From NCBI GenBank assembly GCA_001724265.1, contig MEDY01000152.1, forward strand, positions 1-61,529: a stretch of DNA of 61,529 nucleotides, read 5' to 3'. A program made the position numbers and the translations under genes. This DNA is from Rhizaria sp. SCN 62-66. Lineage: Eukaryota. The notes beneath the pieces were generated by a model. It was not told where the DNA came from, ran no database searches, and saw only the letters and a program-made list of their open reading frames with translations. This document shows, piece by piece, positions 10,744 to 48,707 of the stretch (position 1 is its first letter; each line of letters starts with the position of its first letter).

Positions 10744-11293
10744 TCGGACACGAAGGTCAGTGTGGAACGGGAACGAGTGTTTGAGGACAGGGGAAGTGGT
10801 GACTCACGCGTGGCAGGGAGGAGGGTTGGGTCTGTGGGTCGTAGGAAGGTATTAAGCGTGACGTGTGAGATTTCAAAATAAAAATAAACAGGATACAACA
10901 CGTTTACTATATAAGCAGATAGTGACACAGCGGCCTGACGCACGATTGCGGATATCCAGCAATTGAAAAATCGGGACCTGAACCAGAAATCCGTTCGTGG
11001 TTCGCAGGCAAGGTCCCGGTTGGCGCCTGCTCACATCACTAGGACACTTACGGGCGGACTATGTGGCTCGTTGGGAACACCGTAAATAGGCCTGTGGCTG
11101 GCTGTCGTACTAGATCTCACGAATTTCTGTCAGCTATAACATTATTTTTGCCTAGACTGTTAATCCTGCTCTTCTACCCGCTTCCGTCACTCATACTCCT
11201 TGACTTGCTTTCTGCCCGCCTTCTAGAAATCTCTATCCACACACAAACTTAGCGTTTTTTTCTTCTTGGTCGATTTGCGCACAGCCCTTACGC

Positions 11294-14200
11294 ATGCAAC
11301 CAGTGGGATCCCCGGTCGCTCCCGCGCCGGCCGCCGGGCAGCCCCACGCAGGGGCTGCGGCAGCCGCGGGGACTGCGACGACTCCTGCGACAGTCGGATC
11401 TGCCACTGTCTCCGCTGGTTCCGGCGCCAGCTCTGCTGCAACTGCATCGCAGCTTAGCGCAGCAACAGTGTCTGACATCTCGCATTTTGCCGTTGTATTT
11501 ACGTCGATTGCGAAAGACATGAAACAACAAGCCGCTTGCCTTAGCGCTGACGCTACCGCCAACGCCACCGCCAACACGAGCACGAGCACGAGCTCGCGCT
11601 CGAGCGCGACAAGCACTGACGGAGCCCGTTGCGACAGCGACAGCGATGCGGACAGCTGTGACATTACCACCGCCCCGCGCTACGCCCACGGTGCTCGCGG
11701 TGCCCTTGCCCGGGACGCCAGCGCCGCCGCCTCGGACGCTACTGCGTCTGTTGCCACTGCTTCCGGTGGTGGCGGCGACGGCGGTGGAGGTCGATGGTCC
11801 GTCCCTGCTTCCGCTGCAGCGACGCTGCAGGCGTTTCCGCGCTTTTTGTCGCTTGGCATGAGCACCGCAGACGCTGTAGCTGCCTTTGCCTTCGCCCCCG
11901 CATCATCCTCGAGCTCGAGCTCCAGCTCTAGTGCGAGCGCTGCCTCTGCGGCTGCGTCTGCGGCCGCTGCGACCGCGACTGTGATGGCTGCTGCCGCGGA
12001 CCTGTTCGATCTTGCTCTTCCAACGTCATCGGCCTCCACCGGTGATGAAACGACTTCCACCGCCGAACAACGTGCTCGCACAGATAGTGTCAGATCTCGC
12101 CTGAGTGGGAATGCCGCTCGGGCCACTTATGACTGGCTCGAGTGCACGTGTGCTCCCTCGCTGCCCCAGCCTCGCCACGGCCCTGGCCATTGTGGCGAGC
12201 TCGAATTGGAGAGCGCACTGTGCGCTGCAACGCCGTGCGCTGCGTGCCGGTCGCTGTATCTTGACGCTCAGTCCTACAGTGTGCCGTTGCCTCTCCCGTC
12301 ACTCGACCATCTCCCCTCTCAGTCCCAGGCGCAGTCACCGACTCGGTCGGAAACTGCGCTGTTCACTGCAGACGGCCTGCGCCACCTGCCGGTCAATCTG
12401 CCACTCCCTCTGCACCCCGCCCACGGCAACCTCAGCGCACAGTCGCAGTCTCGCCCGGCCCACTCGATTGACCCCGCGAGCTACTACGCCACTAGCGGCT
12501 TGACTTTGAGCTGGGATCCGGCGGTCACGGGAGCTGTGGCCACACTGTTCCTTTCGCTCGCACTTCCCACGTGCACGACAGCATCTGCCGCATTGCCACA
12601 AAGTGCTGCACCTTCGTCAGGAACTGACGCTCGCGGTAACGTGGCGATCGATTGGTCGAATTCTTTGCAGCAGCTCTGCGCACGCGACTTTGCTGGCAGC
12701 CTCATGTCCGCAGCGCGTAACATAACTACCACGCATGGCAGCCCTTCTGATTTAACTGCTGATAGGAGCGAGATTAACGCGGAAAACAGTAGTTTCGTCA
12801 CCAGTACTCTTGCATCTGCAGTCGCCGCGCGTCGCGGTTTAATCTCGATGCTCGCACACCCCTTGTGTCCGGCAACTGTGCGCACCGCCGCAGTCGGCGA
12901 TTTCTGCGCTTTGCTGGCAGCTGCTGCAACAACCGCGGCCGCTGCTGCAGCAGAAGCAACTACTCCCGTCACTGCGACGGAGCCTGTGACTGCGTTTGTT
13001 TCGGTTCCTTTGGCTCCGCGCCTTGCTAATGTCATCACGACGACGATGCCGACCGTTGCACTTACAGCCATGCCACGCGTTACTACACAAAGCAACGATG
13101 GCAGTGCAAGCGTGAGTGCCGAGAGCGGATCTTTCGCGTCTCTCCTCGACAACTTGCCCCCGCTGACGTCGACAGCACACTCGGTCTCAACTCCGCACAG
13201 CGTGCACAGCCGGATGCAGCAACAATAGCAAAGTCGCGCAATGTCTCTTTGCACCCGCGCGCTGTCGTCGCGGCTTAGCTTCCGCAGTCAAGCCGCTATG
13301 CGGTGTATAGAGGCGCTGTGGGTCGTAGCCATTGTCACTGACCTGTTAAAGGCAGTGACGGTTGCACTTACACTTGACAGCTCAAGTATCAACACCAACA
13401 GCAACAAAGCTGGTCAATCTGCCGCAACGTCCTCTGCAGAGCTTGCCTTCGCCGCTGTATCAGCGTCCGCAGCAGCTTCTATCAAGTCCGCTGTTGTTGC
13501 TGCGTACAGCAATGCTGCAGTTACTCTTCACTCCTCGCATGCAGCAATTGCGCTGCATACCTTAAGTTGTAAGCTCATACATTCTCCCGCTATCGCGATT
13601 ACAGCAGGTGCGATGTCTGCAATGACTGCCTCGACTTCAGCTATTGCCGCCGCGATTGCGGCCGCCCCCGCGCGCGCCGTTGCAGCCTTTGCATCGCTCC
13701 CGCCCCCCATCTTGTCGGCTCCTGTCGCTGCGGCCGCGGCCGGTGGCGCAACCGCTGACGCCGGTACTGGAAGCAAGGAGTGGATGACGGCTGCTTTAGC
13801 TGTGGCTGAGGCAGTGCTGCTCTGGGGCGACAATGCAAGTGCTCAGAGTCACCATCATCTACAGCAACAGCAGGCGCCCACGGGCAGCAGCAGCGTTGCG
13901 CTCGCGAGCTTTGGCGCATCCAACGCCCCTCTCACAGTGACGTCGCTGACGGCCGCTAGTGGCGCGCATCAGACTCTCACAACCTCTGCGCTCACGGTAA
14001 TCGCGCCCACGGTTACGGCCCACTTGCGCCCGCTGTTGTTAGGCTTGCTCAACTGTGTCCGCACGACGTACTCCGAAGTCAAACCGGATTCTGAACAGCG
14101 CTGCGCCCATCTCTCTCCGACACTTGCACAGCAGATTGCACGGCTGTGTGCGTTGACGCTGGGTGCGCGGCCTTTGGCGACAGTGAATACAGCAACGAAC

Positions 14201-17200
14201 AACGATAGCGTGGGTAACGCTGGTTGCGCTGTAAGCCTACGGCCGCTGCCGTTACCGATCTCGCTTCGGGGGCTAGCCATTGTGCTGTATACAGAGCTCG
14301 CCAAGCTGCCCACAACCGAGACCGCGTATGCATTCACAAACCCTGTTCATAGTGATACTGCCAGCTCGAGCGCGAGTGCCCAGGCGCCTGTCCAGGCGAC
14401 TGTAAGCGCTACTAATGTGACTAATTTGAGCGATGCGGCTGTGATGGCGTGCTCGGTCTGCCCTCATCCGTTCATTTCACGTGCAGGCGCCTCTGTCTCT
14501 GCTGCTATTGCGTCCTATCTGCCCACGATTGTTGCGGCGGCACTCGCATTTGAGAACACGCTTCCGCAGAGCGTCTCTTCTGTTCGTGGTTCTCAAGCTG
14601 TAAGTGCGTCGCTGTTCCCACTGGTACGTTTTCTTGTGCTTACCATAATTGGTACTGGCGACGCAACTCATGGTCGGTCGCGCTCCGTTGCCGGCAACGA
14701 GTGCGGCGACTTTGAGCACATTGTGCTGAATGTCGACTCAGGACTGCTGACTCGGCAAGAGCGTGTGAACGTTGCCTTGGCTGTCGCAACAGCAACTGCC
14801 AGCGCTGTCGCTGCCGCTGGCCCTGCGCCAGGCACTGCTGCGGCATCTGGTATCGTTATGGACGGGGCTGATCCTGTTCTGTCGGCGCTGTCGCAGCACA
14901 CTGCACAGCTTCTGTTGTCAACAAACGCGCTCACCAGCGCGATTGTTCGTGGCCAGGATGATAATGTGAATACTCCGTGGTTTGCCCCTGCGAGCGCTAC
15001 ACTGCGCTATCTCGCTGTCTGGGCTGCCCAGCCCGCCCCGTATACACCTGCTCACACGCTCAGCAGCGGCACTAATGGCCAGAGCAGTCGGACGAGCTAC
15101 ACTCCTGCTGTGCAGACTTTGGTCAATTGCCAGTTTGCGCAACTCCGCGCCGAAGTATCCGTCGGAGTCCTGCGGCTGAACTTATGTTATCTTTTGTCCA
15201 CTCCGGCCACGGTCGCTGCGCTGTTACGGTTGCGGCACGCCATTCTGGGTCAGTGGGCTTGTCGCGCTCCGTCTCTTTCTGGGGAGGCCGCAGCGGCGGC
15301 AGAGGCGGCGATGACACTCGGTTTTGACGCCGCGGTAATCACATCTCCAACTGCTGGTAAGCCCATTGTTTCTGCTGGTGGTGTTTGTGCTAGTGTGTGC
15401 GCGCTGGCGTCGTCGCTGCTCGCTCTTCAGCAATGGTCGCGCGCGCTTATCGCCTCCTCTGCAGCCCTCTCGTCACAGAAACTTTACTCTTCAACGGCAA
15501 TCTCAACTGTTTCTATTCGTGGAGGCCTGTGCGATGCTCTGTCACGCTCACTTTTGTTGCGTCCGTTGCGCGCCGCGCTTGCCGCCGCAAGCGAGACCTG
15601 GGCTCTCGTGTCAGCGAGGATTGGCCGCGCCACCGCTGCAATGTCACCTGCCGCTGCAGACATTGTCGTCGTTTCGCTCCCAATGCCCGCTATGATTAGC
15701 AATCCTGATGCTCCGCCTGCGACCGCTGAATTGCCACAAAGCATGGAGGATGGAGGTGGCGGCGAAATCAGTGAGCATGCGACCGCCATGGATGGGCTGG
15801 GACACGTTCTGACACTCGCGCGCGGCAACTACAGCGCTGTGCTCGTGCATCACTACTCCCGTTGCCGCGCACGGAGTGCGAAGGCCAAGATCGCGGCAGC
15901 CAGCGCTCGCGCCAGTGCGCGGGCGCAGGCACAGGCCGCCGCCGACTCTCCTGTGTCGACTGACCTGGCCGCGCTGGGTGCCACAGCAGCAGCCGCGGTC
16001 ACTGCAGTGGCTGATGCGGATGAGGCTGTGCGCGCACTCGCCTTGCCACTGCTGCCGCCGTGCCCGGCGCTGACGACTGTACTCTCTCTGGCTCCGCGCG
16101 CGCCGCTGGGGCTGAACGTTGAGGCGCTTGCACCGTATCCGTTCCCTGCCTCGGTTGCACAGGCACATGCACAGAGCGCTGCAGGCGCATCTGTGAAAGG
16201 TGTGTCAGAGTCGAAGTACTTGGCCCAGTGTCAATGGAGTGTTGTGGCTTCATTCACTGCAGCTGCTGCTGTTGAGGTCTCTGCCACGGCAGCGGCTTTG
16301 CAAGCGAGTGCTTCATGCGCTTGTTCCAACAATTTTAGCACGTCTAGTATTGGCTTTGCTGCTGTTGACAGCGGGTGTTTATGCGCGTGTGACACACCTG
16401 ATGACGCCACTCAAGCTCGGGCGACTGATAGCTTGTTTGCAGCCGGTGCTGGCAATATGACTGTTGCGAATATTGTATCCCCAGCTGCTGCATCCCCTCT
16501 ACCGTCGACCATGTTCTTCAGGCTCTTTTCACAGTCAGTCGTTGCCACCGTTACCGCATTGTCTGTTTTGCCGTGGGCCTCCGTTGCAGCTCTCGACCCA
16601 TTGGCTGGTAATGCTCGTCAGCAAGTGTGCCCCGTCCCGATGGGGCTGTCGATTGCCGCCGCCCAACCTGTCTCATCTGCGCTCTCACGGTATTGTGCTA
16701 CGACGGGATTACTAGCTCTCGACAGCATCCTCGCTGAAAATTCCACAAGCACCGATGATGACAGTCGTGAGTTTCCTTCTGTGTGTGCGTGTAGTGAGTG
16801 TCAACAAGAGAACAACTACAATAACATGATTTGTCTGAGCATGAATACTGCCACCAGCACTCTGGGAATCACTGCTAAAGCCAAAGGTGACGCTGCGAGA
16901 TTTGTCTCGCCGATGTCACTCGGCAGTGAGCCTCCTGCTTGCGTGCTTTGGGACAAGAATACTGCCGCCGCGTGCTTAAACCTCACCATGTTGCTTCCGC
17001 CGACTCTTTTCCCTGACACCTCGACAAGTGTCCGCTCACGGTCGACGCAATCAAAGTGCTCCCAATCTCTTGCTCTGTCTGTGCTACGCGCTGCGCTTAC
17101 GTTCGGCGACTCTGCGCTTTCTCTCGCGGCCGCATCCTCAACTCTTAGTTGTTTTTTCGATGACATTAATGGCTCTGCGCTTGGCCGCGCCGCCCACCCG

Positions 17201-20200
17201 CCTCCCGCCGGCGCTGCCGCGTCCCGTGCTGGTGCCGTGTCCGCCACGACAGTCTACCTTGCCCTGTTGCCCTCGGCCAGTCGTGCACGCGCTCTCTCGT
17301 GGCTTGCCCCGTTGATTGCGGCAGTGTCAGGCGGACAGGCGCAGGCCGTAGCTCTCGCCAGGCCCGCGTCTTGCGCAGCAACGCGAAGCCATGATGAGAT
17401 TGCAGAATTGCCCAAGGACTTTGTCGGGACGATTACACGTCGGATTACTGATCGCTCTTCAATCGGTGTCTCGCGTAACATTGATCAACCTAACTATCTA
17501 TCGCGGATCTTACTCTGGTCCTCTGCCATTTCTGAGCCCGCAATGAGTCAACGCAGGCGCGAGGCAGCCGTGTTGCGCCGCGCAGCCGCTGTTGCTGTAC
17601 CGGCGCTGGCGAGCTTGAAAGCAGGGGCTGGCTTGGCGCTGTTGGCACCACCACACGTGATGATTCGTACAGGCGCTGGTGTCGGGGGCGTTCGCGCAAA
17701 TCAGCCCGACGATGGTGACGGCGGGAACACCACCTCAACTAGGCCTATCTCTGCCTCTGCTGCAGGCGCGATTAAAACGGGTGTTGTACGTGGGGACGCA
17801 TACGTGTGTTTCCCGTGCTACGTTGCAGTTGTTCCCGCTGGCGCACCTGCTCCGGGGCCTTTGGCTCACGTTCGGACGCTCACTTTATTCGACCCCTTTG
17901 CAGACACCGACACTGATTCAGGTTCTGACTCGGGTGAAGATACTGAGTTGGACTCGGCTGATGAGCCGCGCTCAGAGCATAAACACGGTCACGAGCACCA
18001 GCGAGGGACGCGAAATCGATCTAGTGGATGCAAAACGTCTGAAGACGTGCGTGGCGCTGGTGGGCTTGTCATCCGCTCGCAGTGTAACTACTGCATGTCG
18101 GCTCTTCCCCCTTCCAGGACGACACCTTTGGCTAGTACTGATGTGAACAAAAGCGCGCCGACAACAGCTTTTGAACTCTCACCACAGCTTCCGAGTGTGA
18201 CTTCGCTCATGACGCGTTTTGTGCACTCCAACATTATTAACCCCGGAGCAAGTGGTGCTGCGGACGGTGGCATCGATATGACAGACGATTCCAATGCCAA
18301 GAGTAGCGGTGTTAGCTCTGCTGTTACACAAGTCGCCGCTTCACCGTTTCCTCCCCTCGCTGCTGCGGGCGACGCGCTGACGCCCACTGCTGCTCCGCCC
18401 GTGAACGCGGGCGTGATGAGCCATGGGTGCAACCATTGTTGCTATCATACTCGCCCCTCCTCATACTCTCAAACATCCCGCCCTCGGCGCAATCGCCGTC
18501 ACAACCGCAGTCATATGACCTCTAGTGACAGCGACTCTGCCGCGACAGTGAAAACCGCACCTGCTGCATCTGCTGCCATGTATGCGCGCTCGTGGTCTGC
18601 TGCATTATCCTGTGCCTTTCCTGCAGCTGCAGGCTCAGGCGCACTCGCTGCTGCGGCGACTGTTGGCGCGCTGTTCCCAAACCTCAGGGCGGTGTCGCTG
18701 GATCTAAGCCGCCAACTGTTGTCGGCGCCGCGGCTTCGGAGGCTGCCACCATGGCCGCTTGCGCTGCCGCCACAGACTCCCACGCAAACGCAGTCGTATG
18801 ATCATCGGTCGCCAAAGATGTCCCAGTCTCCGTCTCAGCGCTCTGCCCCACAATCACAGTCGCAGGCGCACTCGCAGCAACAGAACACACAGTCGCAACC
18901 GAGTAGTACGCTTGTCGGTTCTGGTAAGGGCGCTGGAAGTGTGTTCGGCAAAGCGAACGTCTCAAACAACGCGCGTAAGAGCTCTAAAGCCTCAGCCAAT
19001 ACGAAGGCTGGTACAACTTCTGCGAAGGGTAATGACAAGAACAAGAACAAGGCTGACAGTGACAGTGATATTGAGTATGTTTCCTTGCTTACCGACAGTG
19101 AAACTGCGAGTGATAGCGAGACCAGCAGCGATGATGACGACGACAACGACTCAGCCGCTGCTACTTCTAAAGCTGCTTCTACAGCTGCGGCGGCTACTTC
19201 TGCTGCTGCTGCTTCTGCTGATTCCGAAGCTGAAGCCAAACGCGCCCGTGCTGAAAACAAGGTACAGCGGCAGCAAGAGCAGCGCACTGCCTGCAATGCA
19301 CGTCGGCTTCAGCGGCAACAGCAGCGTGCACGTGAGGCTACGTTCCGCCCCCAGGACCGGTCGAGCTCGCACGTGTCCTTCTCGTTCTTTGCCCCATTCC
19401 TCTTCTTGCTTGCCCCGCTGCCACCGCAGCCCCTCGCGGCCCACTTCTATTTGCTCTTTGCCAATTCTAATATCGACGATGTGTCAAGTAGCGTACGGGG
19501 AGTGAACTTGCCTGTTGTGCGCGAAAGGACTGTTGGGTGGCGTCTGTCACTGCGTCCGCTGCCTCTTGAGGCTGATACTGTCACTGTGGCGCACAGCCAC
19601 ACCGTGTCCGTGCCACAGACAGGCCCTAAGACGCCAACAGAAGAACCTGTTGTTGAACCACTTCGCTGTGAACGCCAAAGCGTTAGTAACGCGACCAATG
19701 AAAGTACGCGTGCTGTCGCGGCTCTTGCATTCACGCACACGCTCTCCCTCACGCATCCTATCGAGCAAACACTGCTTTTGAGCTACGATGGCAAGGCAGG
19801 CGGCGCGGATGCAACTGCTACGACTGCAAACGGAACGTCAGTTCGCGCGAAGGGAGCAGGCACAGATGTAATTGCTGCGGCCAACACTCTCGTGATGGCC
19901 CTCACAACCTACAATGAATCAAGCGCTTCACAAGCTCAAACCAGTTCGAGTCCTGCAAATTCAAGTTTGAATGTCGACTCGGTAGCTGTGAACCCTCTTT
20001 CACTCTGGGGCAGTTCTGCAATCGAGTCGCTAAAGTGGCTGCAAACTGCTGATCCTGCATCATCGCTGTGGGTGCTGTTGACACAAGCGCCGTCCCTGAA
20101 GCTAAACTGTTTTGATGCTTTAGGTAGTGTTGACGGGACCTCGAATGGTGGTATTCTTTCCCTCGGACAAGCGTTGCTCTCATCGCAGCCATCGACAAGC

Positions 20201-23200
20201 GATATTCGGAACACGACTTCAGTTGATGCTGCGTTTAGTGCAATCTGTGCAGCGATCATGGTCTCCTGCCTTGCCACCCTGACAACTCCTGATGGCAGCG
20301 ACTACAATGCTACACTTCCATTGCCGTTGACTCGGAGCGCCCGCGTTAGTGCTCCTGCGATCGCAGATGCCGCTGTGTCTGATGCTGTCATTACGCTGCA
20401 GCGCGCGTTCCGCGGTTTGCCGTTGTGGGCCACTCGCCTTAACTTCGAGCGTCTCTGCTCTTACACACTCATTCTGCCTGACACGAGCGCTCAGCTGACT
20501 GACTCAGTTACATCGGCAACAACTGTGTTGACATCGTCGGCTAATATTGCTTCCGCGAAAGTACCACCAGTGGTTTACGTGGCTTCATGGGGACCTACTG
20601 TTCCGCGCCCTCTTAACGTCACCGTTTCCGACCATCTAGCTAGTTCAGCTGTCTCTGCGCGTTTTGCCCTTGCTTCGCTGACAGCACCGTCGCTATCTCT
20701 ACTTCCACCTGCGCCATTGGGTGCGTTGACATCATTGTTCCCACTCTCTCCACCGCCAGTGCCATACAGTGTCGACGCCGCAGATGCACCCACGCGCGCT
20801 GATGCGAGTACGCACGGCCTGCGTGGTCTTCCTCCGCTGCGCTCACGGCTACCGCTGCATACTGTACTTGCCACGCGCTCTGATGCGCCTGCTTCAATTC
20901 CAAATTCTGCACAACGGCGGAGGAAGCCGCAACGTAAGCCGTTTGTACACAGTGAGCGGGAAAGCAAGAGCAGCCGTGTGGAGGATGACGACGATGACGA
21001 CTATGAAGACAAGGACTGGAATGCCAACAGGAGCCCTGATGAAGATGGTGACAGCGATGACGAGAACAAGACAGTCACCGTCGCTTTACCACCTCCTCAG
21101 TTTCTGATGTATGCGCCACCAACTAAGCTCGCGTTCCGCCGCAGCAGCAAAGGATACGCCAAGGGTTCAGTAATTCCGCTTGTGGCTGGCACTGTCTGTG
21201 GTGTATCGAAGTTCCATCATTCGGCTAAGCTTCCCGATGCGTGCTCACAGTCACCCATTATCTTCTCATCTTTCCCATCAAACTCTAGTGTGAGTGATGG
21301 CTGTGGCTATCCTCCCATTTCTGTCGCCGCTGCGCCTCCGACTCCTGTCCTCGGTCTTTTTCTTGTGTCCTTACTGACCGACGCACAACCCCTTGTACGC
21401 CACTCTGTTGCCGCGGCATTACCGACTTTGCTCACGGTTACTGCGCACAGTGGCGTTGACGTTGCTGTGTGCACCACTGCGCCCACAGACACATCCACTT
21501 CTTCTGTTGTGGACTCGACGGCGACGGCACATGTCGACCTCAGTGAGGAGCTGGCGCCGTACATTTCTCCGAACTCAACCCTCCCGGTTGTCGCGGCCAA
21601 CGCACCTCCGCTCGTGCCTGCACCGACCGTCCGCGCCACAGGTTACGTTGCGGGCCGCAGCCACCCCACTGCCCATCCTGCCAGTGGTCATCAAACTAAC
21701 GCCCAGTCGCACCAACAGCCTCATGCGCAAACACAAACGCAGCACACGCCAACCCACCCACAGGATCGCGGCAGTCCTATGGCTGACGGCGATAGCAGCA
21801 ACGAGTTGTTGTCGCAAGCGCAACACAAACCGATGATGCATCAACAAGCCTCGCACATGCACTCGCAGCTACCGTCACAGTCGCTGTCTCCGATGGAAAC
21901 ATCGAGCTCTCCTGCTTCGGCCAACACGACGCCAGTTAGTGCGGCTGCAGCGCCTGCTGATTCAGTCACAGGCGCAGTCGCCATGAGCAGTTCTAGCAGT
22001 AGATCAAGCTCCAGCTCCAGCTCGAGCAGTGCAGCGCATGGATTGAATCCTAGTGCTGGTGCCTCACTGTCGATGGCTAGTGAGCCTCGCGTGCCCGTGT
22101 CCGCCCCCGCAATGCCTGCGCCAGCGTTTTCGGCCGGTGGGCCGCTACTGATGCTCTTTGCGGGCGCCTTCGCAACGGTGCCCGACCCGGCACGTTGTTT
22201 ATGCGGGGCCGGTGTTCATAGTAACGCCACTCGGAGTCAATGTGCCTGCAGTGTTACGCCGCGCTGTGGTGTGCCCGAGGCGCTCTCCCGCCTCGCAGTC
22301 GCGCTAACGGCTCGGTTCGAGACGCTCCACGCGCGCGCCGCGAGGGTTGCGACGGTGACCAGCACGGCGCGGCGCGCTGCTGCAGCAGCTCTTGCGGCCG
22401 CTGCCCTAGGACCAGTCTCTGCGCCAATAGCAGCGCCGTCGGCGGCATCTAAGACCCCTGCGGCTACCGCGGCTGCTGGTGTGACAGCTGCGGCAGCCGC
22501 TCTTGTCGCCGCAGCTGCCGGCACACGCGCCGGCATTGGAGGCGCGCTTGCGTTGTTCTCAGGACACTCGGCCACATCAGCGTATAACGGTGCTTATAGA
22601 CTTAGCACCTCGCATGCTGCAGCAATAACACCCGTTAAAGGCGGACGATCTGCTAGTGCGACATTGCCTGGATTTGACAATGATAGTGCTGCTGTTCGAA
22701 CTGGAGGGTTGGCCGAGCCCACGGTCACTTCGCGTGCGCTGGCTGAGGCTGAAGGCAAGATGAGTCGCCTGCCCACGCGTTTCCGTGACAGCGTTGGGGT
22801 GAGTGACTGTGAGAGCGCATGGCTCCATGACAGTTTGGCGATGGTCCGCGCAAACGCTGACCTCATTGACAGTGATGACAATGAGCAGTGTGACCAAACA
22901 TCTTGCGCTGCGTGCAAGCCTAGCAGCAACCCCGCTGCTGACGCAGCTGCAGTTTCCGGCGTGGGTTCAGGCACTGGAGGCGCAGGATATGGAAGCAGCC
23001 CGTACGTGCCCTTCCCGCTCTACATTAGTGGACGCGCGCTCGCTGCGGTGATGAACAACACAAACACTCATGACCCCGCCTCCGCTGGCCAGCAACGAAA
23101 CGCGCCAGCAGTGAGTGTGAGCGCCTTGCTTGCCGCCACTGCGGTGCACTCGCTGCTCACGCTGCCTTTCCGTGCACCCCTGACACCGGGCCTCAGTGCA

Positions 23201-38200: not shown

Positions 38201-41200
38201 GATGCCGTCACAGCCTACGACGCTGCATCGCCGTTGTCACGCACAGGCAACGCATGCGATGCGCACATTACCAATCAGGCCGCTCGCCACGCACGTGTGC
38301 CGACACGGCGCCCTGCGCCTCCTGCTGTTGCCGGTGTATCGCCCGCAGGCGTCACGGCGTCCGTGGCCTCTGTCCCGCTGCCCGCGGCCGTGAGTGTCGA
38401 CGGCGTCAGGCTGTGCTCCCATACTGACTTGTTCCTTCGCGTCGTGTCCTCAGCGGCCTCCGCTGTGCGGGGTGGCGACCACAGGCTGGCTCGCTTCCTC
38501 GCGCCTCTGATTATGCAGTTTCTCTCTCTGCATGCATCTGACGAAGGCGCCGAGCACCTGGGCGTATTACGCGCTGTCAATACGCCTACACATCCGACGA
38601 CCGCTGTCCCGAGCACAGCTAGCGCCGCTACTTCGACACAGTCCGGAGGCCAAAGCAGCACGCCCATCAGCGCAAGCGTAGGGCCTGCTGAAATGCAACA
38701 ACGCGCCCGAAGCGGTGGCAACGGTGGTGGCGGCAATGGCTCTTTGTCACCGTTCGGCCAGGCTCGGTCACCCGTCGGCGGTGCGCATGCGTTGCTCTCT
38801 CATCTCTCCCCAGCACAGCAGCAGCGTGTGAGTGCCTTTACTGCTTCGGCCAACGCGAATGCGGCCTCAGCAACAGCGGCTGCTACAGCAGCGAGCGCGT
38901 CATAGTCTACTGCAAGCGGTTTAACGTCTGATGTGACCGCAGAGTCGGATGCATATCTGTACGGTGCGCATACGCCTGATCCGTACCCGGGTCCACCGCT
39001 CTATTTATCGTATGCGGCTGCGACTTCCGCAGCCTCCGCCGCAGCGGCCGCGCACTCGATTGTTCTTTCATCTGCTTTGCTTAGTCCTGCGTCTAGCGCT
39101 GGTTCGAGCAACAACACGAATGATGGAACGAAAAACTCGCTCACTGTCGCATCTCCACCGTTGACTGGTCACGGACGCACATCCGCTGCCTCTAATCCGT
39201 CACTGGCGTCCACGTCTGCACCTGCGGCTGAAAGATCGGAGGTGTCCGCTGCAGCTGCAGAGGCAGCGGCTAAAAGTGCCGCCATTGTCAGTGCTGCGCT
39301 GAGCGAGCTGGGCCCGTTCCGCATGCTCAGTGGCCTAACCTTCTTCGACATCGCGCTGATTCGCGCGCGGTTGGAGATTATGACGGTCGTTCGGCTTGCA
39401 GCCGGGATGTCGCTGCCAACATGCACAGAACCAGGTGGGTATTTGCACGCGGTGAGTCGGCGTGCAATGGAGGCCAATGTTGAAGCTGTGATTATGCGAC
39501 TTACCGCCGCTCTCTCAACCAGTAAATCCAAAGATTACAGTGATGGTGATAGCGATGCACGCGGCGGAGATGAAATGCACGATCGTGACAACGATCATCG
39601 CAACGACAACGGGGGTGCCAGCAATGCTCGCAGTGAACGCGCGCAGCGCGATCGCAATCTCCGCACGGCTACTCTTACACACAGCTCAACCATTGTTGCC
39701 GACATCGATGCCATCGCTGACGCACCCTTACGTAGCCTCATCTCATCCCTGCAGTCATCTCTTGCACTGCTGCGGGCCTTCTTCCCTCCGTTGCCGCATC
39801 CTGCCCCACGTCCGCCGGCATACATGCTGTCTTGCGCGTTTCTTGCGCTCGACATTGCCACCGCGCTAAACAGCTGGACCGCTGCTGCTGACTCCGCAAT
39901 CACAGTTGAACACTTTACGCGCGAAATTCGTGCTGCCATGGAAGCTGCAGCGGAAGCGAACACTCGCTACGCCCTGGAGTTTGACTACGACTTCACACCT
40001 GTACGCGCTATTGCGCCGCACTCGTTATGCCGCCCGCTCGCGGTGTACTACGCAGAGACCGAACTGCAACCTGCCACCGCTGCACAGTCTGGTCGCACAG
40101 GCAGTCTTCGTAACACTGGGGGTAAGGCACTCCCGTTGACGACCGCTGTCGAGGGCGCTGAACCGCTGTGGCTACCACTGCTCACAGTCTCCATCGCTGC
40201 AATTTCTAACGCTGCTACCCGCGCTCTCTGCGCCGGGACGAGCGCAAACGGCGCGAACGCGATTAACGCCACTACTTCTGCTGCTTCTAGTGGCAATGCT
40301 GAGACCGCATCTCAATCTGCATCTGGTCCTATTGTGTACATCACTGACGATCAAGTTCAACGCACGCGCTTTGGTGTGGTGACTCTTTTTGCAACCGCTC
40401 TCCCACGATCTGTCCTTTCTGCGGCAGCGTTACGCCTCGGGTCGCTCCCGCATGCGCTGTGGCACACCAACGCGATGCTCCGTGCCCGCACCAGCGACGC
40501 CCTGCGTGCCTCGCGCACTGCCCGCGGGCTAGGGCTTGACAGCGTGCTTAAGCCGGCCGTGTACGACGTCGGTATGGGTCCCGCAGCGCAGCTCAAAAAC
40601 CTCGGTGCGCTGCTGTGGAGTGATCTTACGCTGCTGCAGGACATTTACTCGAGCATGAATGCAGTTTCTGGTATTGAGGCAGTTGCTATGTTACGCGCAA
40701 GTGCTGGTGCAGCTTCTGCTACACCCTCTGCTAGCGTTACCTTGAGTGCGAACGGTAATTTATCGTTGAGTGGCACTAGCGGTAGCGTTAACGTTGGAGG
40801 ACCTCTCGGTCGCGGGACTAGTTGGGCAATGACTCGCGGGAGTTACAATGACGCAAGTGGCGACTTAAGCGGAATCCGCGCTCGCGTCAAGGACCTTGAG
40901 GTTGAGGGCGACTGGCGCGAGGCTGCTGTGCTGTACGGGTTTATCTTGTCAAAGGTGCCGCACGACCTGAAAGCTCATGAAGGCATGGTGCGCTGTCTGG
41001 TTGGGCTTGGCAACGTTGCTGCTGCAGCTGCACATGCGTCGTTTGTCATCTCCAGCATGCGCGCCGCGGCTGCATCTGCTGCTATGCGCCCGGCGCTGGT
41101 TGCCGCTGCGCTTCGCGCCAATCAGATTGTGCCGACTGAATTGTCATCGCCTTCGACGTCTCTGGCACGAACGCTGCCGTCACCCTTGTGGGGGTCACCA

Positions 41201-44200
41201 TCACCTACGGCGTCGGTGTCCAGCGTCATATCATGGCCTGACAACATCACAGCTCTTAGCAGCAAAAACAACGCAATCTTGGATGTTAGTGCCTACGACG
41301 CTGCTGCGTTCGCCGTTGCAGCACCTGCATTGGCGACAAGTTCTGCTAACAGTGATGTCGCCCGCATTGACAGCCACTCCAATAGCCAGTTTCTTGCTTT
41401 GCAAAGTGCTGCAGCTGAAGGTTTGTGGCGCCTGGGGCAGTGGGACCAAATTACTGAGTTCCTCCCTTCGCTCAACAACGACACGAGCTCTCGTCATAGC
41501 ATCAGTCGCGGGATCTCTAGCAGGAACATCTCTGTTTCGAGGAATCCCGCAAAACATAAATCCTCATTCTCCGATGCAACTTCGGTGCATTTGTCTTTGC
41601 CGCCACGGCTCTCGTCTTTCCCGTTGCTGTTGTCAACCGCAGTAACGGCGCTGCACACACGCGATCAACCTCTGTGGGTCGCTGCCTTGGATGATGCCTG
41701 TGTGGCCACACTCAGCCCGCTCGCCGCAGCGGCATCCACCCACGCGTCGGTTGTTGCAGCTTCTGCCGCCGCTGCTGCCGCGCCTGCTGAGGCTCGCCGC
41801 GCACTGACGAGCCTACACGTTCTTCAAGATCTTGCTTATGTCGCTGCTGCTGCCTCGAACACCTTTAGCAGTGGCACTTTGACAGGTGTCCGTGGGGGGA
41901 TGCTTGAGCTTCCAGCCGCAGAGTCGCTACGCACAGTTGTCGCTGCCGCAGACGCGGGCATCGACCCCGCTGCATGGGCCGCTGCGAGCGCCGCCTTTGT
42001 CCGGATTAAAGCATCTCGCACTGTTGGTGAGACTGCGAGCAATGTTGGTGTACAATCGTCTGTGTTTGTGCAGTGTCCCGCAACGGGAGCGCTTATTGTT
42101 GCCGCACCGTGCTTTGTGTCCCTGCGCGTGTTTCCGCCAGGATCTACGCTCACAGCTGTCACCGCCGCCATTGCGGCCGCATCGTCGGGACCCGTCTTCC
42201 CGCCGCAAGAGCTTTCGGCCGCTGGACCAGCGCTCGCCTCTGCTGCAGCGGCTGTCGCAGCGGTACTTCCGCTTAGTACAGCGTCGTGGGTGCGCTCTCT
42301 CGCGCACGAACTCGCTGGCACCTGGCGCTCGCGGCTTAGCTTCCTGTCAGCGCCTGGACGCGCCGCATTGCACAGCGCAGGCTCCGCGACGTCAGCCGCA
42401 GGCTTGACCGCTGCTGACGCTGGTGGCTCACCATCGTTTGTGCGCGGCTTGACTTATGACGACCGCGAGCTGCTTCTCAGCACCCACCGGACCGTCTTTG
42501 CCGAGCTTGGTCTTGCACTTGCGGTTGCGGGTACACAGGTCGTTTCATCGCAGCTTGCGCGCCGCTGTGGCAAGCTTGAAATTGCGTCAGCTAATATTGT
42601 TGCAGCGACTGTGGCCGTCACTGAAGGGATGCGCAGCGCGGCGCTTTTTGCACGCGTGGCAAGTACTGGACCTGCTGCCATTACTCGTGCTTTGAGCGGG
42701 AGTGGCAGTATGGGGGCAGTCGGGCTTGGTGCTGCTGGTGACAGTGAATCTGGTGCGCTTGAGAACGAAGGCACGTCCGCGCTTGCGTTTAGCCAGCTGC
42801 TCTCTGCTGCGACGACAGCGACAGCCGCTGCGACAAACACGGCTGCTAATGCAGCGGCAAATGCGATTGCCACAGGCGCCACAGCCACCGCGGCTGCTGC
42901 CGCTGCCGAGTCCGCAGCTGCACCTGCGGTAGCAACCGCCGCCGCAGCAGCGCGTGCCTGCCGCCGCCACTGTCGTGCGCGCCTTGCGCTGGCGTCGTGC
43001 GCATTCGAGTCTGCCTCGTTGCGCCACCAACAGGGCTCACAGCTACCTGCGATCTCGGCCCTCGAGGCAGAGACCGCGGCGCTTGAGCTGACACTGGCCG
43101 CCGCGCAAGCCTGGGTCTCCGCCGGTGGCGCTGCAGGCGCGGCGGGCGCTGCTTTCCCGCTGGCTCTTGAATTGCGGCTGCGACAGGCGCTCGTATATGG
43201 CCTCACTCTGCTTGGACAGTGGTTGATGCAGGCGCGCTTCCGTGAGGCCGCAGCCTCGTACGACTCATGGCTCAAAGCCATTGCGGTTGCTGAAGGCATG
43301 ACGCGTGTGCCTGAGCCCGCCACAACTGCTATTCCAGCCGTAACTGCGGCGCCAGCGCTTGCGGGTCCCGCGGCTGCTGCTGCCGCTGCTGCTGCGGCGG
43401 CTGCTGCAGGCGCAGCGGCGACGAGTGCAAGTCGCAGCAAGCGCGCAACCCCCGCCGGACCGGTGCCACCGTTTCCACCGTCTGCGACTCAGCAGCCTTC
43501 GCAGTCTCAACACACGCCATCACACCGCACTGGCCCCGGTGCCAGCGCGGCGGCTGCAGCGCTAGGCTGCCTCGCCGCGCGCCCGTCATCACTGTCGCCG
43601 CTTCCGTTCTTTCTGTTGGGACAGCACTACGACTCTCTGTGCCAAGCCAGCATGGCAGCTGCCGCGGCTGCTGCGGCCGCAGTTTTCACACGTGGGCGTA
43701 GCAGCGATGTTGATTCCAGTATCAATGGTGGCATGAGCGGTTACACAATGCAGACGATGACGTACTTGGCGCTCGCTGTGGGGAATCTGTGCACGGCGCT
43801 TGTGCAGAGTGATGCGTTATCGTCGGGCCGCATGGTGCTGAAGCACAACTCCATTGTTGCTCTGCCTTGGTGCGCGCCTCAGCCATTAGCTCAGGCGTCT
43901 TCCTCGTCTCGTAACAGTGCGGCGCCTAGCAGCTCTGCGTTGACTGGTGCTGGCGGAGTGCTCACAGGCGGCGATATCTGGGGCATCCACGATCACGAGA
44001 GCGACCCTTCTGTGGCATGTGCGCCTTTCTACGCTGCAGTTCACTCGACTGCTGTTCCCGCAGCGGCTGCAGCCGCTACAGCCGCGGCAACCGTGCTTGC
44101 ACACGCTGTGCAGGGCGACGAGGATGACTTCACTCTCGGTCTCCGCGTCGGCGGTGGTGACTACTACTCCAGCACTGCAGAGATTGTTTCATCTGGCTCT

Positions 44201-47200
44201 GCAGCACTCTCGGGTGCAGACAACAGCGGCGATGGTGGGAGTGGAGGCAGCGGGGGCAGCGGTCACAGTGACCGTGACCGCGCAGCTGCAGCAACGGCTG
44301 CTGCAACTGTGCTTCCGCTCGCCCTCCAGGCTCTACCGCGCGTCTTGACGCTGTGGTTTGACGCCACTACTGCCGCTGCAGCCGCTGCCACACGGGCTGT
44401 TACGCTTGCTCGCTCGGTCGCCACGTCTGCCGCGCATGCGGACGCCGTGCAGGACGACATGAAGCGCGCTGAAGCCGCTGCTGCGCGCGCCTCCTCCCGA
44501 GCTCCACAGCAACAACAGCAGCAGCAACAGCAACATCAGGGACTTCCTGCACCGCTGCTTGCGGCGAGCAGGGAGGCAAACCAACGGCAACAACAAACGG
44601 CGTCCGCATTGTACGACCTTGTTTTGCGCACGCCTTTGGTGCAGAACCCTGCCGCTGCCCGTCTTTTGGTGGCCGTACGGCGCCGCGTGGAGGCGCTTGC
44701 TGGAGAGCTTTCTCCGGCCGCGTTGTCGCCAAGCATGGAGCAGATCCTCTCTCGTCTTACGGACGGCTGCCGTAGCGCGGTGCCGGCGCCAGCAAGCGCG
44801 GAGGCCGCGGCCGTCAGTGACGCGATTCTCGCAACCAGTTCGAGTGTCGCGTCGCGCAGTCGCGACGGTGAGCGTGAACGTGAGCGTGAGCGTGATACTG
44901 AGCTCCGTGCCAGTGCGCTGCGCGCTGCCACAGGACTTGGATACGACGTAGGCCTCGTACTTGCAGACTTGTATCTGGCAGCAGCGCCCGCGCACACGCT
45001 CGCCGTCACGACGAAGCTGCTGTGCTCTATTGCATCAGGATACCCGCAGCAGACCCTATGGCGACTCGGTCCTCTGGGACTGCTTCTTACGAGCGGCAAC
45101 AATGCCTCAGCGCCCGGTGCAGCCGACAAGCTTGCTGGGCGCCTTGCCGCGGATGCAGTCGCTGCAGCTTCAGCCGCCACCTCACGCGGCGGTGCTGGTA
45201 CGCTATCTGCCTCGCTGAAGCTCGCGAGCCGCCTCTCTATCTCGGCCATCACATCGCTTGTGCAGCCCATTTCTGCCGCCATTGCTGCCGCACACTCATC
45301 CTCGAGCTCTGCCACCTCCGGGCTCGGCGGCGGCGCGTTTGGTGCACCGGGTGTGTTGAGTCATGGCGACACGCCAATGTCGCGCGTCAGCGTTGCACGG
45401 CACGTCATTGACACGATGGACTGGGCCGGGCTATTCGGCCCCGTTTCGCTGCATCTGCGCATGCACGCAACCAAAATGTTTGTCTTCCTGGCGCGCGTTG
45501 CCTCGGCCAACTACAGCCGGATTGACCGCAGTCTATATGAGATGGACCGCAAGAATGGGGTGGCAGTGGCAAGTTCGTATCGCAGCACTACCACACCCAA
45601 ACTGTCCGAGTTTTGTGCTAAGGTGAGTCGCCACGTTCAAATTGGGGCAGCAAATCTTGCTGCTGCGTCTAACAGTGGCTCATCTGCGAGCAGCAGTCGC
45701 AGCGTTGACACAAGTGCAGCGAGTCCGCATTTAGAGATTCCGACGCGATGCCCGCTTATGGTGCCGCTGCACCGGTGGTTTACCCCGCAGACTGCCCCCA
45801 CGACTGCGGTGTTGCCGTACGCGCCTGCGCCGATGCATTCCCACACCGGTGACAGTGGCGGCGGCAATGGCGGTCCCGAGGACAGCGCGTCGTCGCAGCA
45901 TGGGCGTTATGTCGGTGGCACTGGGTTCAATGGCGGCTTTGCAACAATGTACGCGTTCAACGACTCAGTCCTTATCCTCACCTCGAAAGAAGCGCCCAAG
46001 CGCCTCACAGTCATTGGCTCCGATGGCAGCTCTAATTACCTTCTTTGCAAGCGCGAGGCGCGCGGCGACATGCGCAAAGACCAGCGCCTGATGGATGTCG
46101 CTGCGCTTGTTAACATGGTTCTTAGCGCTGCCTCTGCGGGTCGCGACAGCAACAGCCTCAGTGCGAGCGCGGGTGATGACACCGCTGGCCTCACGCCTGC
46201 AGCTGGATGGAACGGAGCCAACTCGTTCACTGCGGTTGCGACAGGTGCAATGTCGGCTTCCGCTGCTGCGACTCTGGCTGCCTCAGCTGCTGCGAGTACT
46301 GCCGCCTCTGCCGCGGCCGCCACAGCCAGGGCTGCTGCGCTCACGTACAACGGCGTCAGCGGCAGTCAGCTGTCATTCCTGTTCAATGGCATTCGGCCGA
46401 CCGCCGAGTACGTGCGTTATCTCTCTGCGCGCGCAAGCATCGCCAATAGCGTCGCAATGGCGGCTGTGAACACGGTGCAGGCGCGCCGTCGCAGCCACCG
46501 CGCGGCTGCTCGCGGCGGTGGCGTGCAGGGTGGCGGTGGCAGCGGAAGTCTTTACCAGGCCGCTGTGGGCAACAACAGCGGTAGTAGCACCAGCAGCAGC
46601 AGTTACGGCGGTGGTAATGGCGGCAACGCAGGTGACGGACTCGATCTCGGCGACGGTGGCGATCACGACGCCGACACTGCATCCCTGCAGGAGGACCCCT
46701 TGCGTACGTACGCTGTGCTTGTGCTCACGACCTCCGACGACCAAGTTCACGCGCTTCCGCGCACACACCAGGCCACAGCGGCCGACACTGCGGCGCTGCC
46801 GGGCCACAGCGTGTCCTCTGGTGGCGTGCAGGTGTTCCGCGACCCGCTCGTGCAGTCGTTCAACGCGACTAAGCTTGATGGCGGGTGTGCCGTGTGCGAG
46901 TGGGTGCCTTACACCAAATCACTTCGTAGCATCGTGATGCGGCAAGAGTCCGTCTCGCGCGGCCGCTCTCGCACGCTCGGTGAGATCCACAGGCGCTTTT
47001 TTGCACCGTCGAATGAGCCTGAGCTCGCGATGCTGAACCCCGTGGAGAAGTACCGGGTCATCTGTCGCATGTGCCCGCCGGTGATGCACCAATACTTTGC
47101 AACCAGGCGCTGGGGGCGCGCCGCTGCGGACAACGAGGCCCTCGTCGCAAGCGGTTCGGGCTACGGCGTGTACCAGGGAGGGTGTGGCGGAGACCCGGAG

Positions 47201-48193
47201 GCGTGGCTCAACGCCGTCCGTCTTTTCACCACCACGGCCGCAGCGTGGTCGGTCCTTGGCGGCATTGTTGGCCTTGGTGATCGTCACACCGAGAACATCC
47301 TCATCGACACGAGCTCTGGTCAGGTCGTGCATGTCGACTTCGACGTCGTGTTCCTCAAGGGTGAGAGCCTCAAGGTGCCTGAAGTCGTTCCTTTCCGTCT
47401 CACGCCCAACATGATCGACACGATGGGAATCCTCGGTGTCGGTCTGCCTACAGTCACACGCGAAGACAGGCTCACGCCGACCATCACGCTTCCCGCTGCC
47501 GCAGGCGCCACTGCGGTCGCGCTGGCGGCCGACGCCGCTGCAGCGGCCTCACGTCCTGCCCCTGCCTCTGCGTTCTGGGAAGACGTGACGCGCATTCTAG
47601 GCGTTAAATCCGCCGCTATAACCGCACCTAACGCTGCAGCTACCTCGCCTCCCAACAGTAGCAACAGCAGTGGGGGAATGCGAACTGGCACAGCCGGACC
47701 GAATGTCAACTCAACAACAGCCGCTGTCGCCGCCGTCGCCGCCACCGCGGCCGCGCCCGCTGCCCATGCACGCGGCGTGACAGGCTGGGGCAATGGGTCC
47801 CCGCTACCGGCTTTGGTGCCTGGCGCCGGGTGGGGCGTGCGCATCGACTCAGTCGGCGGGCGCGAGCGCGGCCCCTTCGTAAGGTCGTGCGAGCGCGTGC
47901 TGACTGCGATTCGCGTTCACGACCGTGCTCTGATGACGGCATTCCACACGCTGATCTACGACCCGCTGGTTGACTGGGGCATTTCGGGCGGTGAGCGCAC
48001 GGCGGGTGGCGCCGGTGCAGACGGTCAGCATCTGCAAGATGTTTTACGAGACTTAGAGCTGAGGATTCGCGGTGTGCTGCGCCGCGGCGCGCCAGCGCTG
48101 TCGGTGACTGGCCACGTGCAGCAGTGGATTCAGGAGGCCACGGATCACTATAGGCTTGGTGTGATGTACATCGGGTGGATGGCGTGGATCTAA
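11294..48193 (+). CDS. ATR: Giant ATR/Mec1/Rad3-family PIKK kinase; single 36.9-kb reading frame, 12,299 aa, with two in-frame TAGs
   Basis: Track ORFs 11294..13228, 13241..38905 and 38933..48193 share one frame and are separated only by TAG plus 4 or 9 sense codons. ATR-type motifs: FWRAFTLEEQQLLQPLLAATY, EEWACRWVYRL, DHRLARFLAPLI (before TAG 38903); LPRSVLSAAALR..ALWH, DLEVEGDWREA, EGLWRLGQWD, ALPRVLTLWFD (FAT); PKRLTVIGSDG..LCK..DMRKDQRLM, LRTYAV, EWV, GLGDRHTENIL, VHVDF, VPEVVPFRLTPNM (kinase); LSVTGHVQQWIQEATD..MYIGWMAWI-TAA (FATC). The exact start and inclusion of the first 644 aa are less certain than the C-terminal identity. Confidence 0.88.
13226..13228 (+). other. In-frame TAG within a Gln run (inferred Gln)
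   Basis: ATG CAG CAA CAA TAG CAA AGT = M-Q-Q-Q-*-Q-S. Confidence 0.85.
38903..38905 (+). other. In-frame TAG between ATR-homologous blocks (inferred Gln)
   Basis: GCG TCA TAG TCT ACT (A-S-*-S-T). Colinear ATR similarity lies both upstream (~38030-38525) and downstream (~40400 onward). Confidence 0.88.
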
Positions 48194-48707
48194 TCAGCCA
48201 GAGATGAAAGCAAATTCCATCACATATGTTGACATGTGCATCGGAACGATTTATAATTATTTGAGCAGGTCACACATGAGATGTGTATTTGTGAATGATT
48301 TAAATTTACTTTATGATATTTAGCGATAGAAACTACTTTAAAATACATTGATTGACTCGAAAAATACCCGTCATTGAACTTGAACAATGTGAAATGTGGT
48401 ATTCGGAGCAATGGCAAAATGCTTTTTGTCGACCACGAACAACGAGACAAGCGAGTCGGTCGACTCGACTGAGACAGGAGGGCATCGGGCAAACTTCGCA
48501 CTATGTTTTCGGCATCATAAGTCCGATACTTGGCTCTGTTATTGAGGGTATATATATTTACACGCAGCATTAATTTCTGTTTTTTAATTACTACCCATAA
48601 ATACACGCTCTGACTCCTGATAACCTACGCTTAAAAAACACCGTCGTTTTTTGTTGCTCTTCGCGCCCTCTTCACTATGCCTGTCTTGTGTGCCGCATTC
48701 CCAGGCC

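Follow-up and report, generated by a model that had tools for sequence, protein, structure and literature searches.

Is the 36.9-kilobase (kb) reading frame on the forward strand of contig MEDY01000152.1 one gene, or several genes separated by its two in-frame TAG codons (TAG 1 and TAG 2; Table 1)? The contig, 61,529 nucleotides (nt) from Rhizaria sp. SCN 62-66 (assembly GCA_001724265.1), was analysed over its whole length and is referred to below as the window. The original prediction, made from the letters alone, took the frame to be a single, apparently intron-free gene for an ATR-type kinase of 12,299 amino acids (aa), about 4.6 times the length of human ATR. This reading was supported in part: the ATR-type end, the inserts, and the lack of introns of the local type held up, and the ATR blocks expected in the N-terminal part did not. 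We regard it as probable that the locus is one intron-free ATR-family gene, with TAGs read as an amino acid, translated inserts, and a product of ~12,299 aa. All evidence comes from this one 61.5-kb window, which holds 4 in-frame TAG codons and 9 gene ends. Residues are numbered throughout along the translation of the giant open reading frame (ORF), with aa 1 at nt 11204.

When TAG is counted as a sense codon, the forward frame at 11204–48193 comprises 12,329 codons with exactly 2 TAGs, and the stop triplets in this frame are 1 TAA, which is terminal, 2 TAGs, and 0 TGA. The uninterrupted run of 36.9 kb without TAA or TGA that had been claimed is therefore present, with 0 internal TAA or TGA and 12,299 aa from the first ATG at 11294. 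Under standard stops, also as foreseen, the locus is split into three abutting ORFs in the same frame, at 11204–13228 (674 aa), 13229–38905 (8,558 aa), and 38906–48193 (3,095 aa). Over the same interval the +1 frame contains 293 stops (46 TAA, 54 TAG, and 193 TGA) and the +2 frame 587 (109 TAA, 132 TAG, and 346 TGA), and of the 121 600-nt windows scored with a codon model, 120 favoured the ORF frame and one was a near tie. Given these off-frame stop counts and codon-model scores, the open frame is real and frame-specific and is no by-product of base composition; its length lies far beyond chance. The encoded protein is 4.65 times as long as human ATR (2,644 residues) and is rich in Ala, Ser, and Thr, as had been described, with 20.0% A, 12.5% S, and 7.6% T distributed uniformly from end to end.

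The window sequence is present in contigs of bioreactor, wastewater, and activated-sludge metagenome runs, and the contigs of four runs (X2, X3, X4, and X6) were compared with the window over 28200–48199. TAG 2 does not stem from an assembly error in a single sample: its letters are identical in X2 and X3 contigs (37757–39370, 0 differences), although these two runs are weak as independent support, having identical statistics, with X2 sharing its study with the likely source. An AT-rich dip is a feature of every intergenic gap in the window, and none was found at TAG 1 or TAG 2. The next ATG 3' of TAG 2 lies ~150 codons away, with the frame open until there.

By its homology, the 3' end of the locus encodes an ATR-type kinase. 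The Pfam family PI3_PI4_kinase (PF00454) matched at 46850–47431 (E = 7.8e-29; 101.7 bits against a cut-off of 27.1) and FATC (PF02260) at 48098–48187 (E = 3e-12; 46.5 bits against a cut-off of 25.3), the latter match ending one residue before the stop, whereas UME and FAT stayed below the Pfam threshold (described below). The translation displays the motifs DRHTEN and HVDFD, which we take to be the PIKK catalytic motifs, and a C-terminal MYIGW. The assignment to ATR rather than to another PIKK is by match ranking: among proteins in the PDB, human ATR ranks first (3e-38), followed by yeast Mec1 (5e-32), SMG1 (4e-27), ATM (4e-21), mTOR (7e-17), and DNA-PKcs (2e-6). When the last 846 aa were compared with 5.8 billion proteins, 27 proteins passed, of which the best 23 had the ATR domain set and the weakest 4 were TOR-like.

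A profile of 2,635 positions, built from 21 aligned ATRs that had been retrieved, was searched against the whole giant-ORF translation and yielded seven significant collinear blocks (A to G; Table 1) at aa 8942–12329 (3,388 aa). The ATR blocks are thus in order and dispersed among inserts, as had been proposed: the inserts between them measure 144–863 aa where the profile has 2–277 positions, and the kinase domain itself is interrupted by an insert of 248 aa between blocks E and F. In total, ~1,280 profile positions are spread over the 3,388 aa, that is to say, this part is stretched about 2.6-fold. The proposal that dispersed inserts account for the ~4.6-fold length of the protein holds for this C-terminal half of ATR; for the remainder, which has no ATR match, such an expansion can only be surmised.

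ATR homology spans TAG 2 (aa 9234), with block A (E = 6.6e-8) upstream and the remaining six blocks downstream. The alignment of block A displays ATR-specific motifs, and the segment 8000–9233 that contains it scored 18.6 bits, compared with −2.2 or less for 30 block shuffles and −1.7 for the reversed protein; the hhalign probability of block A is 66–68%. With block A, a significant match, located 5' of TAG 2, the 3,095-aa ORF, though ATR-sized, is not a whole ATR, and the ATR gene, as judged by this homology, continues through TAG 2. The default reading under the standard code is that the TAGs are true stops and that the locus makes separate or truncated products of 674, 8,558, and 3,095 codons, whether as a split ATR, a decaying gene, or adjacent genes in the same frame. 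This reading agrees with the last ORF by itself being as long as a normal ATR, and three adjacent genes would fall in one frame with a chance of 1 in 9. However, the last ORF would be without block A and without the first half of ATR; an AT-rich spacer occurs at all other gene boundaries in the window and at neither TAG; the ~150 codons between TAG 2 and the next ATG are open; and an excess of synonymous strain differences is found on either side of TAG 2 (described below). Moreover, the pattern occurs twice more in a second gene (506–3016), and all four interruptions are TAG, yet TGA is the commonest off-frame stop triplet. We therefore consider true stops most improbable.

The inserts were assessed with the run X4, which carries a slightly different strain. 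Listed differences between X4 and the window numbered 40 of 54, and 38 were used after 44776 (seen in X3 only) and 44878 (in a high-depth repeat) had been dropped; the test covers aa 8078–12160. In the ORF frame, 26 of the 38 differences are synonymous against 11.7 ± 2.8 expected, a number reached by 0 of 5,000 resamplings, and 24 of the 38 fall in third codon positions. Read in the two alternative frames, only 9 and 4 of them would be silent. Of the 32 listed differences located outside the seven blocks, 22 are synonymous against 10.2 ± 2.6 expected (0 of 5,000 resamplings; binomial p = 2e-5), and the counts on the two sides of TAG 2 are 11 of 17 upstream and 15 of 21 downstream. Given the synonymous excess outside the blocks, the non-homologous stretches within aa 8078–12160 evolve as constrained protein. 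The inserts between the blocks behave in this comparison as translated sequence under purifying selection, in agreement with the claim that they are translated.

Two further features of the run contigs were noted. X4 is identical to the window over 28200–35224 (0–1 differences in four contigs) and shows 3–7 differences per kb beginning at 35435; such a mosaic suggests recombination between haplotypes. At 44208–45541, the depth of X4 and X6 spikes to 21–61 versus ~5 elsewhere, with a depth of ~1,800 at site 44878; a short simple stretch in this interval is common to other abundant sequences in the X4 and X6 samples.

X6 is a polyA metatranscriptome, and its contigs, which are short, lie on 22 of 30 bins and on both sides of TAG 2. 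Eleven joints were listed in the run contigs over 28200–48199, none of them intron-like; with sides of only 20–22 nt and skips of 112–13,814 nt, they look like repeat artefacts and were rejected as such.

The introns of the neighbouring genes provide the local standard against which the frame can be judged. Four verified introns in the RFC and ITFG1 genes are 119–206 nt long, with a GC content of 0.36–0.43 and a pyrimidine fraction of 0.73–0.87 in the 30 nt before AG, which bears out the description of the neighbouring introns as AT-rich. They start with GTACGT, GTACGC (twice), and GTTCGT and not with GTRAGT; these intron features may help place the organism. Inside the ORF no intron-like AT-rich dip was found, only four dips of 60–100 nt that read as ordinary coding sequence, and none of its 31 GT[AT]CG[TC] sites is followed by sequence with a GC content below 0.51. 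Since the ORF has neither a dip of the local type nor an AT-rich context after such a 5' site, the gene is intron-free by this genome's standard, as had been supposed.

Introns of another kind could nevertheless remove the TAGs. In that case the code would be standard, each TAG of the giant ORF would end a short GTGAGT intron (117 and 78 nt), and the protein would be 65 aa shorter and still a giant ATR. In-frame GTGAGT sites do stand 117 and 78 nt upstream of TAG 1 and TAG 2, respectively; as the ORF contains 14 GTGAGT sites altogether, a site within 120 nt of each TAG would arise by chance with a probability of ~0.2%, and the first candidate contains a branch-like CTGAC motif. By contrast, the candidates have a GC content of 0.61–0.62 and a pyrimidine fraction of 0.40–0.47, compared with 0.36–0.43 and 0.73–0.87 in the verified introns, and their 5' site is unlike those of all 4 verified introns. 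Eleven of the 14 sites simply encode Val-Ser in the ORF frame. Introns need neither a length that is a multiple of three nor an absence of stops before the last codon, no such GTGAGT site lies upstream of the TAGs in the gene at 506–3016, and TAG occurs at 0 of 9 gene ends. Removal of the TAGs by splicing is accordingly improbable in our judgement.

The second TAG-bearing gene, on the reverse strand at 506–3016, has no internal TAA or TGA. Its three segments are all scored as coding in the same frame, and the off-frames of the two long segments hold 12–38 stops. A search for homologs of this gene found only itself, and a public protein collection has it as a 538-aa piece that starts after the last TAG. 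In the 16,968 supported codons of the window (9 coding stretches), the in-frame stops are 4 TAG, 0 TAA, and 0 TGA, the TAGs being confined to these two genes. Downstream of the four TAGs, the open run measures 8558, 3095, 218, and 562 codons; downstream of the nine gene ends, it measures 12, 5, 21, 35, 33, 1, 26, 65, and 5 codons. These ends comprise 5 TAA, 4 TGA, and 0 TAG (chance ~0.08 if TAG made up a quarter of stops). In view of the absence of local-type introns, the second gene with its two TAGs, and the 0 of 9 gene ends at TAG, TAG is most likely read as an amino acid, by full reassignment or by ambiguous, context-dependent decoding, as far as can be inferred from 4 codons. All 4 TAGs fall in stretches without homologs, and the run of Gln codons around TAG 1 is no more than a hint at the amino acid.

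The TAGs differ from the true stops in their setting. The GC content at third codon positions (GC3) is 0.52–0.70 in the giant ORF and 0.53 in the gene at 506–3016, compared with 0.80–0.93 in the TAG-free genes (UFD1, MFS_5, RFC, ITFG1, the COG3-like gene, and the gene at 54161–55489), so that in-frame TAGs occur only in the low-GC3 class. The base after the codon (+4) is C or T at 4 of 4 TAGs (p ~0.023) and the preceding base is A at 3 of 4 (p ~0.027), both being post hoc statistics with n = 4, whereas a purine follows 7 of the 9 true TAA and TGA stops. Weak-termination contexts are given in one review (PMC4615788) as +4 C > U > G > A, adenines upstream, and CAA downstream.

These contexts would also suit readthrough, in which eRF1 still sees TAG as a stop in competition with near-cognate or suppressor tRNAs, the full-length protein is a minor product, and the code is ambiguous. 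Besides the +4 and preceding bases, the rarity of TAG in frame and the position of TAG 1 in CAA-TAG-CAA would fit this reading, such contexts being listed as readthrough-favouring in that review (PMC4615788). However, no stable RNA structure was found 3' of the TAGs (z = −1.03, 0.37, −0.02, and 0.76), an essential kinase that needed two low-efficiency events would be made only in traces, and the absence of TAG from the 9 gene ends suits a codon that has lost its terminating role; moreover, the statistics on context are post hoc. We consider readthrough rather unlikely.

The first ~8,900 aa (Table 1) are coding, having an open frame and a fitting codon score. Their most likely identity, as we infer it, is the N-terminal helical arm of ATR, greatly expanded and diverged. 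The N-terminal HEAT solenoid of ATR binds ATRIP. Pfam gave no family at E ≤ 0.01 for this region, and at E ≤ 10 a single weak HEAT repeat match near aa 3387 (E = 0.11); the rows for DUF742 (0.0069) and SGT1 (0.034) are at chance level. Sequence searches of the PDB with the region returned nothing meaningful, the best E in blastp against 126 PIKKs was 5.8, and in hhalign comparisons of 1,500-aa pieces with the ATR alignment nothing upstream of ~aa 8944 beat reversed controls. A weak profile match at aa 8068–8216 (−1.4 bits) was no better than shuffles and was discarded. The giant protein has no internal duplication (5 self rows only) and only 6 short rows of tandem repeats. A protein-atlas feature search with aa 5001–7000 placed helical-repeat proteins (Tra1, PSME4, ECM29, MMS19, and listerin) as the nearest named clusters, at ~0.9 and with low recognition, and aa 679–2678 gave no usable match. 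The N-terminal part includes islands with little low-complexity sequence, among them aa 5427–5504, 6325–6475, and 8138–8203. According to a crude composition classifier, core-like windows make up 16% of the N-terminal part, 14% of the C-terminal inserts, and 43% of the blocks; the N-terminal part resembles the C-terminal inserts in this respect, and the classifier says nothing further.

An alternative is that only the last ~3,400–4,300 aa are ATR and that the ~8,000 aa upstream are an unrelated or newly arisen region fused in frame, which would be compatible with our best explanation on coding and on TAG. Upstream of aa 8942 there is no ATR signal above controls, and aa 679–2678 are without a usable atlas match. 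The missing ~1,350 profile positions would, at 2.6-fold stretch, need ~3,600 aa; because 8,900 are present, a fused or novel region is a live alternative. Against it, the N-terminal arms of PIKKs are poorly conserved, with almost no consensus there in the 21-ATR alignment; the nearest atlas clusters of aa 5001–7000 and the HEAT match near aa 3387, both weak, are of the helical-repeat kind; and neither other domains nor internal duplication were found in the upstream region. We hold a fusion to be the less likely origin, though a serious contender.

Several observations weigh against our explanation of the locus as one ATR-family gene read through both TAGs. The first is the same absence, in the first ~8,900 aa, of any ATR signal above controls. 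Pfam UME (PF08064) gave no match at E ≤ 10 in any piece of the giant protein, and an hhalign match of aa 6417–6540 to the UME part of the profile (E = 0.13) was rejected as not above reversed controls; the missing UME does not exclude ATR, however, because some retrieved ATRs are likewise without a precomputed PF08064 match. The FAT region reached 11.2 bits in Pfam against a cut-off of 24.2 (E = 0.21), although the ATR-only profile recognised it in blocks B and C (E = 3.1e-20 and 9e-10; hhalign probability 98.2%). The proximity of GTGAGT sites to both TAGs counts here as well. No X6 contig lies over 38205–39356, leaving TAG 2 unspanned, and the X6 contigs cannot show single transcripts and are uncontrolled for DNA carry-over. 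No tRNA was found in the window, and the case for TAG decoding is limited to 4 TAG codons and 9 gene ends, and TAG, at 4 in 16,968, would be an unusually scarce sense codon. A metagenome scan with aa 9235–10234 recovered no relatives of the giant gene among 47 pattern matches. Finally, TAG is far rarer here than UAG in the rhizarian exLh, for which one report counts 384 UAG in 71 genes (PMC5304391).

Comparison of the giant ORF with ATR (human, 2,644 aa) and Mec1 (yeast, 2,368 aa) revealed the same order of blocks (mid-region block, FAT as matched by the ATR profile, kinase, and FATC), the catalytic motifs, and a C-terminal FATC. The giant ORF differs from both in that (i) it is 4.65 times as long as the human protein; (ii) inserts of 144–863 aa lie between or inside conserved parts, including the 248 aa in the kinase domain; (iii) UME is undetectable and ~8,900 aa are unmatched; and (iv) it is a single exon with two in-frame TAGs. 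The longest ATR-like proteins retrieved have 4,050 aa and 3,441 aa (the latter among the best 150 of 5,126), compared with 12,299 codons here. According to one study, unicellular eukaryotes have DNA-damage-response homologues much longer than their human counterparts, ATR being among the examples, and the extra residues lie in interdomain regions of unknown function (PMC12134460).

Reassignment of UAG alone has precedents. According to the exLh report, UAG is Leu in exLh and Gln in the fornicate Iotanema spirale (PMC5304391), and another paper describes UAG-only reassignment in phyllopharyngean ciliates (PMC11687900). The window resembles exLh and Iotanema spirale in having in-frame TAGs with gene ends at TAA or TGA only; UAG is scarcest in highly expressed genes of exLh (PMC5304391), and TAG occurs here only in low-GC3 genes.

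Ordinary eukaryotic genes surround the giant ORF, namely a COG3-like gene, an MFS_5 transporter, ITFG1, an RFC small subunit, and UFD1. A long forward ORF at 8971–10881 was rejected as the antisense shadow of the UFD1 gene, and Rfam gave 0 matches in the window. The best named matches of the MFS_5 transporter are ~50% identical (Thecamonas and two choanoflagellates), and unnamed metagenome proteins reach 72% and 65%; a metagenome scan with this transporter found 46 loci, all at most 56% identical except for a 50-residue end piece. For the giant protein, a search of representative sequences, with the 'longer' length class left out, found none closer than 40% identity and none giant in the top 150 of 5,126.

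Table 1. Coordinates of the giant open reading frame, its conserved blocks and TAG codons, and other features of the window.
Feature	Coordinates	Strand	Details
Giant ORF	11294..48193	+	First ATG to TAA stop; 12,299 codons (11294–48190); two in-frame TAGs
Ala/Ser/Thr-rich region	11294..38026	+	~8,900 aa; open frame, coding-like codon use, no detectable homolog or domain
TAG 1	13226..13228	+	Context CAA-TAG-CAA, within a run of Gln codons
TAG 2	38903..38905	+	aa 9234; context TCA-TAG-TCT; between ATR profile positions 1475 and 1526
ATR block A	38027..38665	+	aa 8942–9154; profile 1354–1475; E 6.6e-8; 5' of TAG 2
ATR block B	within 40277..41737	+	aa 9692–9972; profile 1526–1721; E 3.1e-20; start of FAT region
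ATR block C	within 40277..41737	+	aa 10059–10178; profile 1704–1792; E 9e-10; start of FAT region
ATR block D	44324..44491	+	aa 11041–11096; profile 2069–2106; E 4.5e-7
ATR block E	within 45938..47440	+	aa 11579–11647; profile 2282–2348; E 2.6e-22; kinase domain
ATR block F	within 45938..47440	+	aa 11895–12079; profile 2366–2521; E 6.6e-53; kinase domain
ATR block G with FATC	47870..48190	+	aa 12223–12329; profile 2523–2635; E 4.4e-27; very C-terminus
Candidate in-frame intron, GTGAGT...TAG	13112..13228	+	117 nt; GC 0.61; pyrimidine 0.40 in last 30 nt
Candidate in-frame intron, GTGAGT...TAG	38828..38905	+	78 nt; GC 0.62; pyrimidine 0.47
AT-rich stretches	10831..11281		Directly 5' of the first ATG, as in other intergenic gaps
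Second TAG-bearing gene	506..3016	-	ATG at 3016, TGA at 506–508; 836 codons; TAGs at 2852–2854 and 2195–2197
UFD1 gene	9169–10635	-	Between COG3-like gene and giant ORF; Pfam UFD1_N1 8.9e-27, UFD1_N2 1.9e-26
ITFG1 introns	51926–51756, 51566–51448	-	Placed by homology and frame
RFC introns	56417–56622, 57079–57234	+	Placed by homology and frame

If the locus is one ATR-family gene, as we consider probable, its product would be a checkpoint kinase for replication stress and DNA damage. The conserved module (mid-region block, FAT, kinase, and FATC, with intact catalytic motifs) would fill the last 3,388 aa, split by low-complexity inserts, and would be preceded by the expanded helical arm. Both TAGs would be decoded as an amino acid in an organism that appears to terminate its genes with TAA and TGA only and that may tolerate rare TAGs inside weakly expressed genes, in weak-termination contexts. 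A single transcript would then give one polypeptide of ~12,299 aa that would act as ATR does, its inserts looped out from the conserved core.

ATR-type kinases, inflated DNA-damage-response proteins of protists, and UAG-only reassignments are already known; the novelty of this locus lies in degree and combination, namely a 36.9-kb single exon, an ATR-type kinase of 4.65-fold length, constrained inserts, and a rare, context-restricted sense TAG in an organism without a close named relative. The limited literature searched contained no report of a giant ATR or of a wastewater eukaryote with UAG reassigned. Tentatively, and with somewhat less than even confidence, we suggest an undescribed lineage of wastewater reactors at an early or ambiguous stage of UAG-to-sense reassignment, with UAG rare, in weakly expressed genes and weak contexts, and at no gene ends, which also has the longest PIKK yet seen, a single-exon ATR of ~12,299 aa whose inserts, being under purifying selection, probably have a function.

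If the whole frame is translated, the protein would be by far the longest ATR-type kinase among those retrieved and would serve as a natural test of the tolerance of a PIKK core for unstructured insertion; these insertions are no neutral filler, as 22 of the 32 listed strain differences outside the blocks are synonymous. The locus also flags a probable change of stop codon, and annotation of this organism's genome with the standard code would break genes up wherever a TAG occurs. A sense TAG that is rare and restricted in context would give a useful snapshot of the onset of reassignment.

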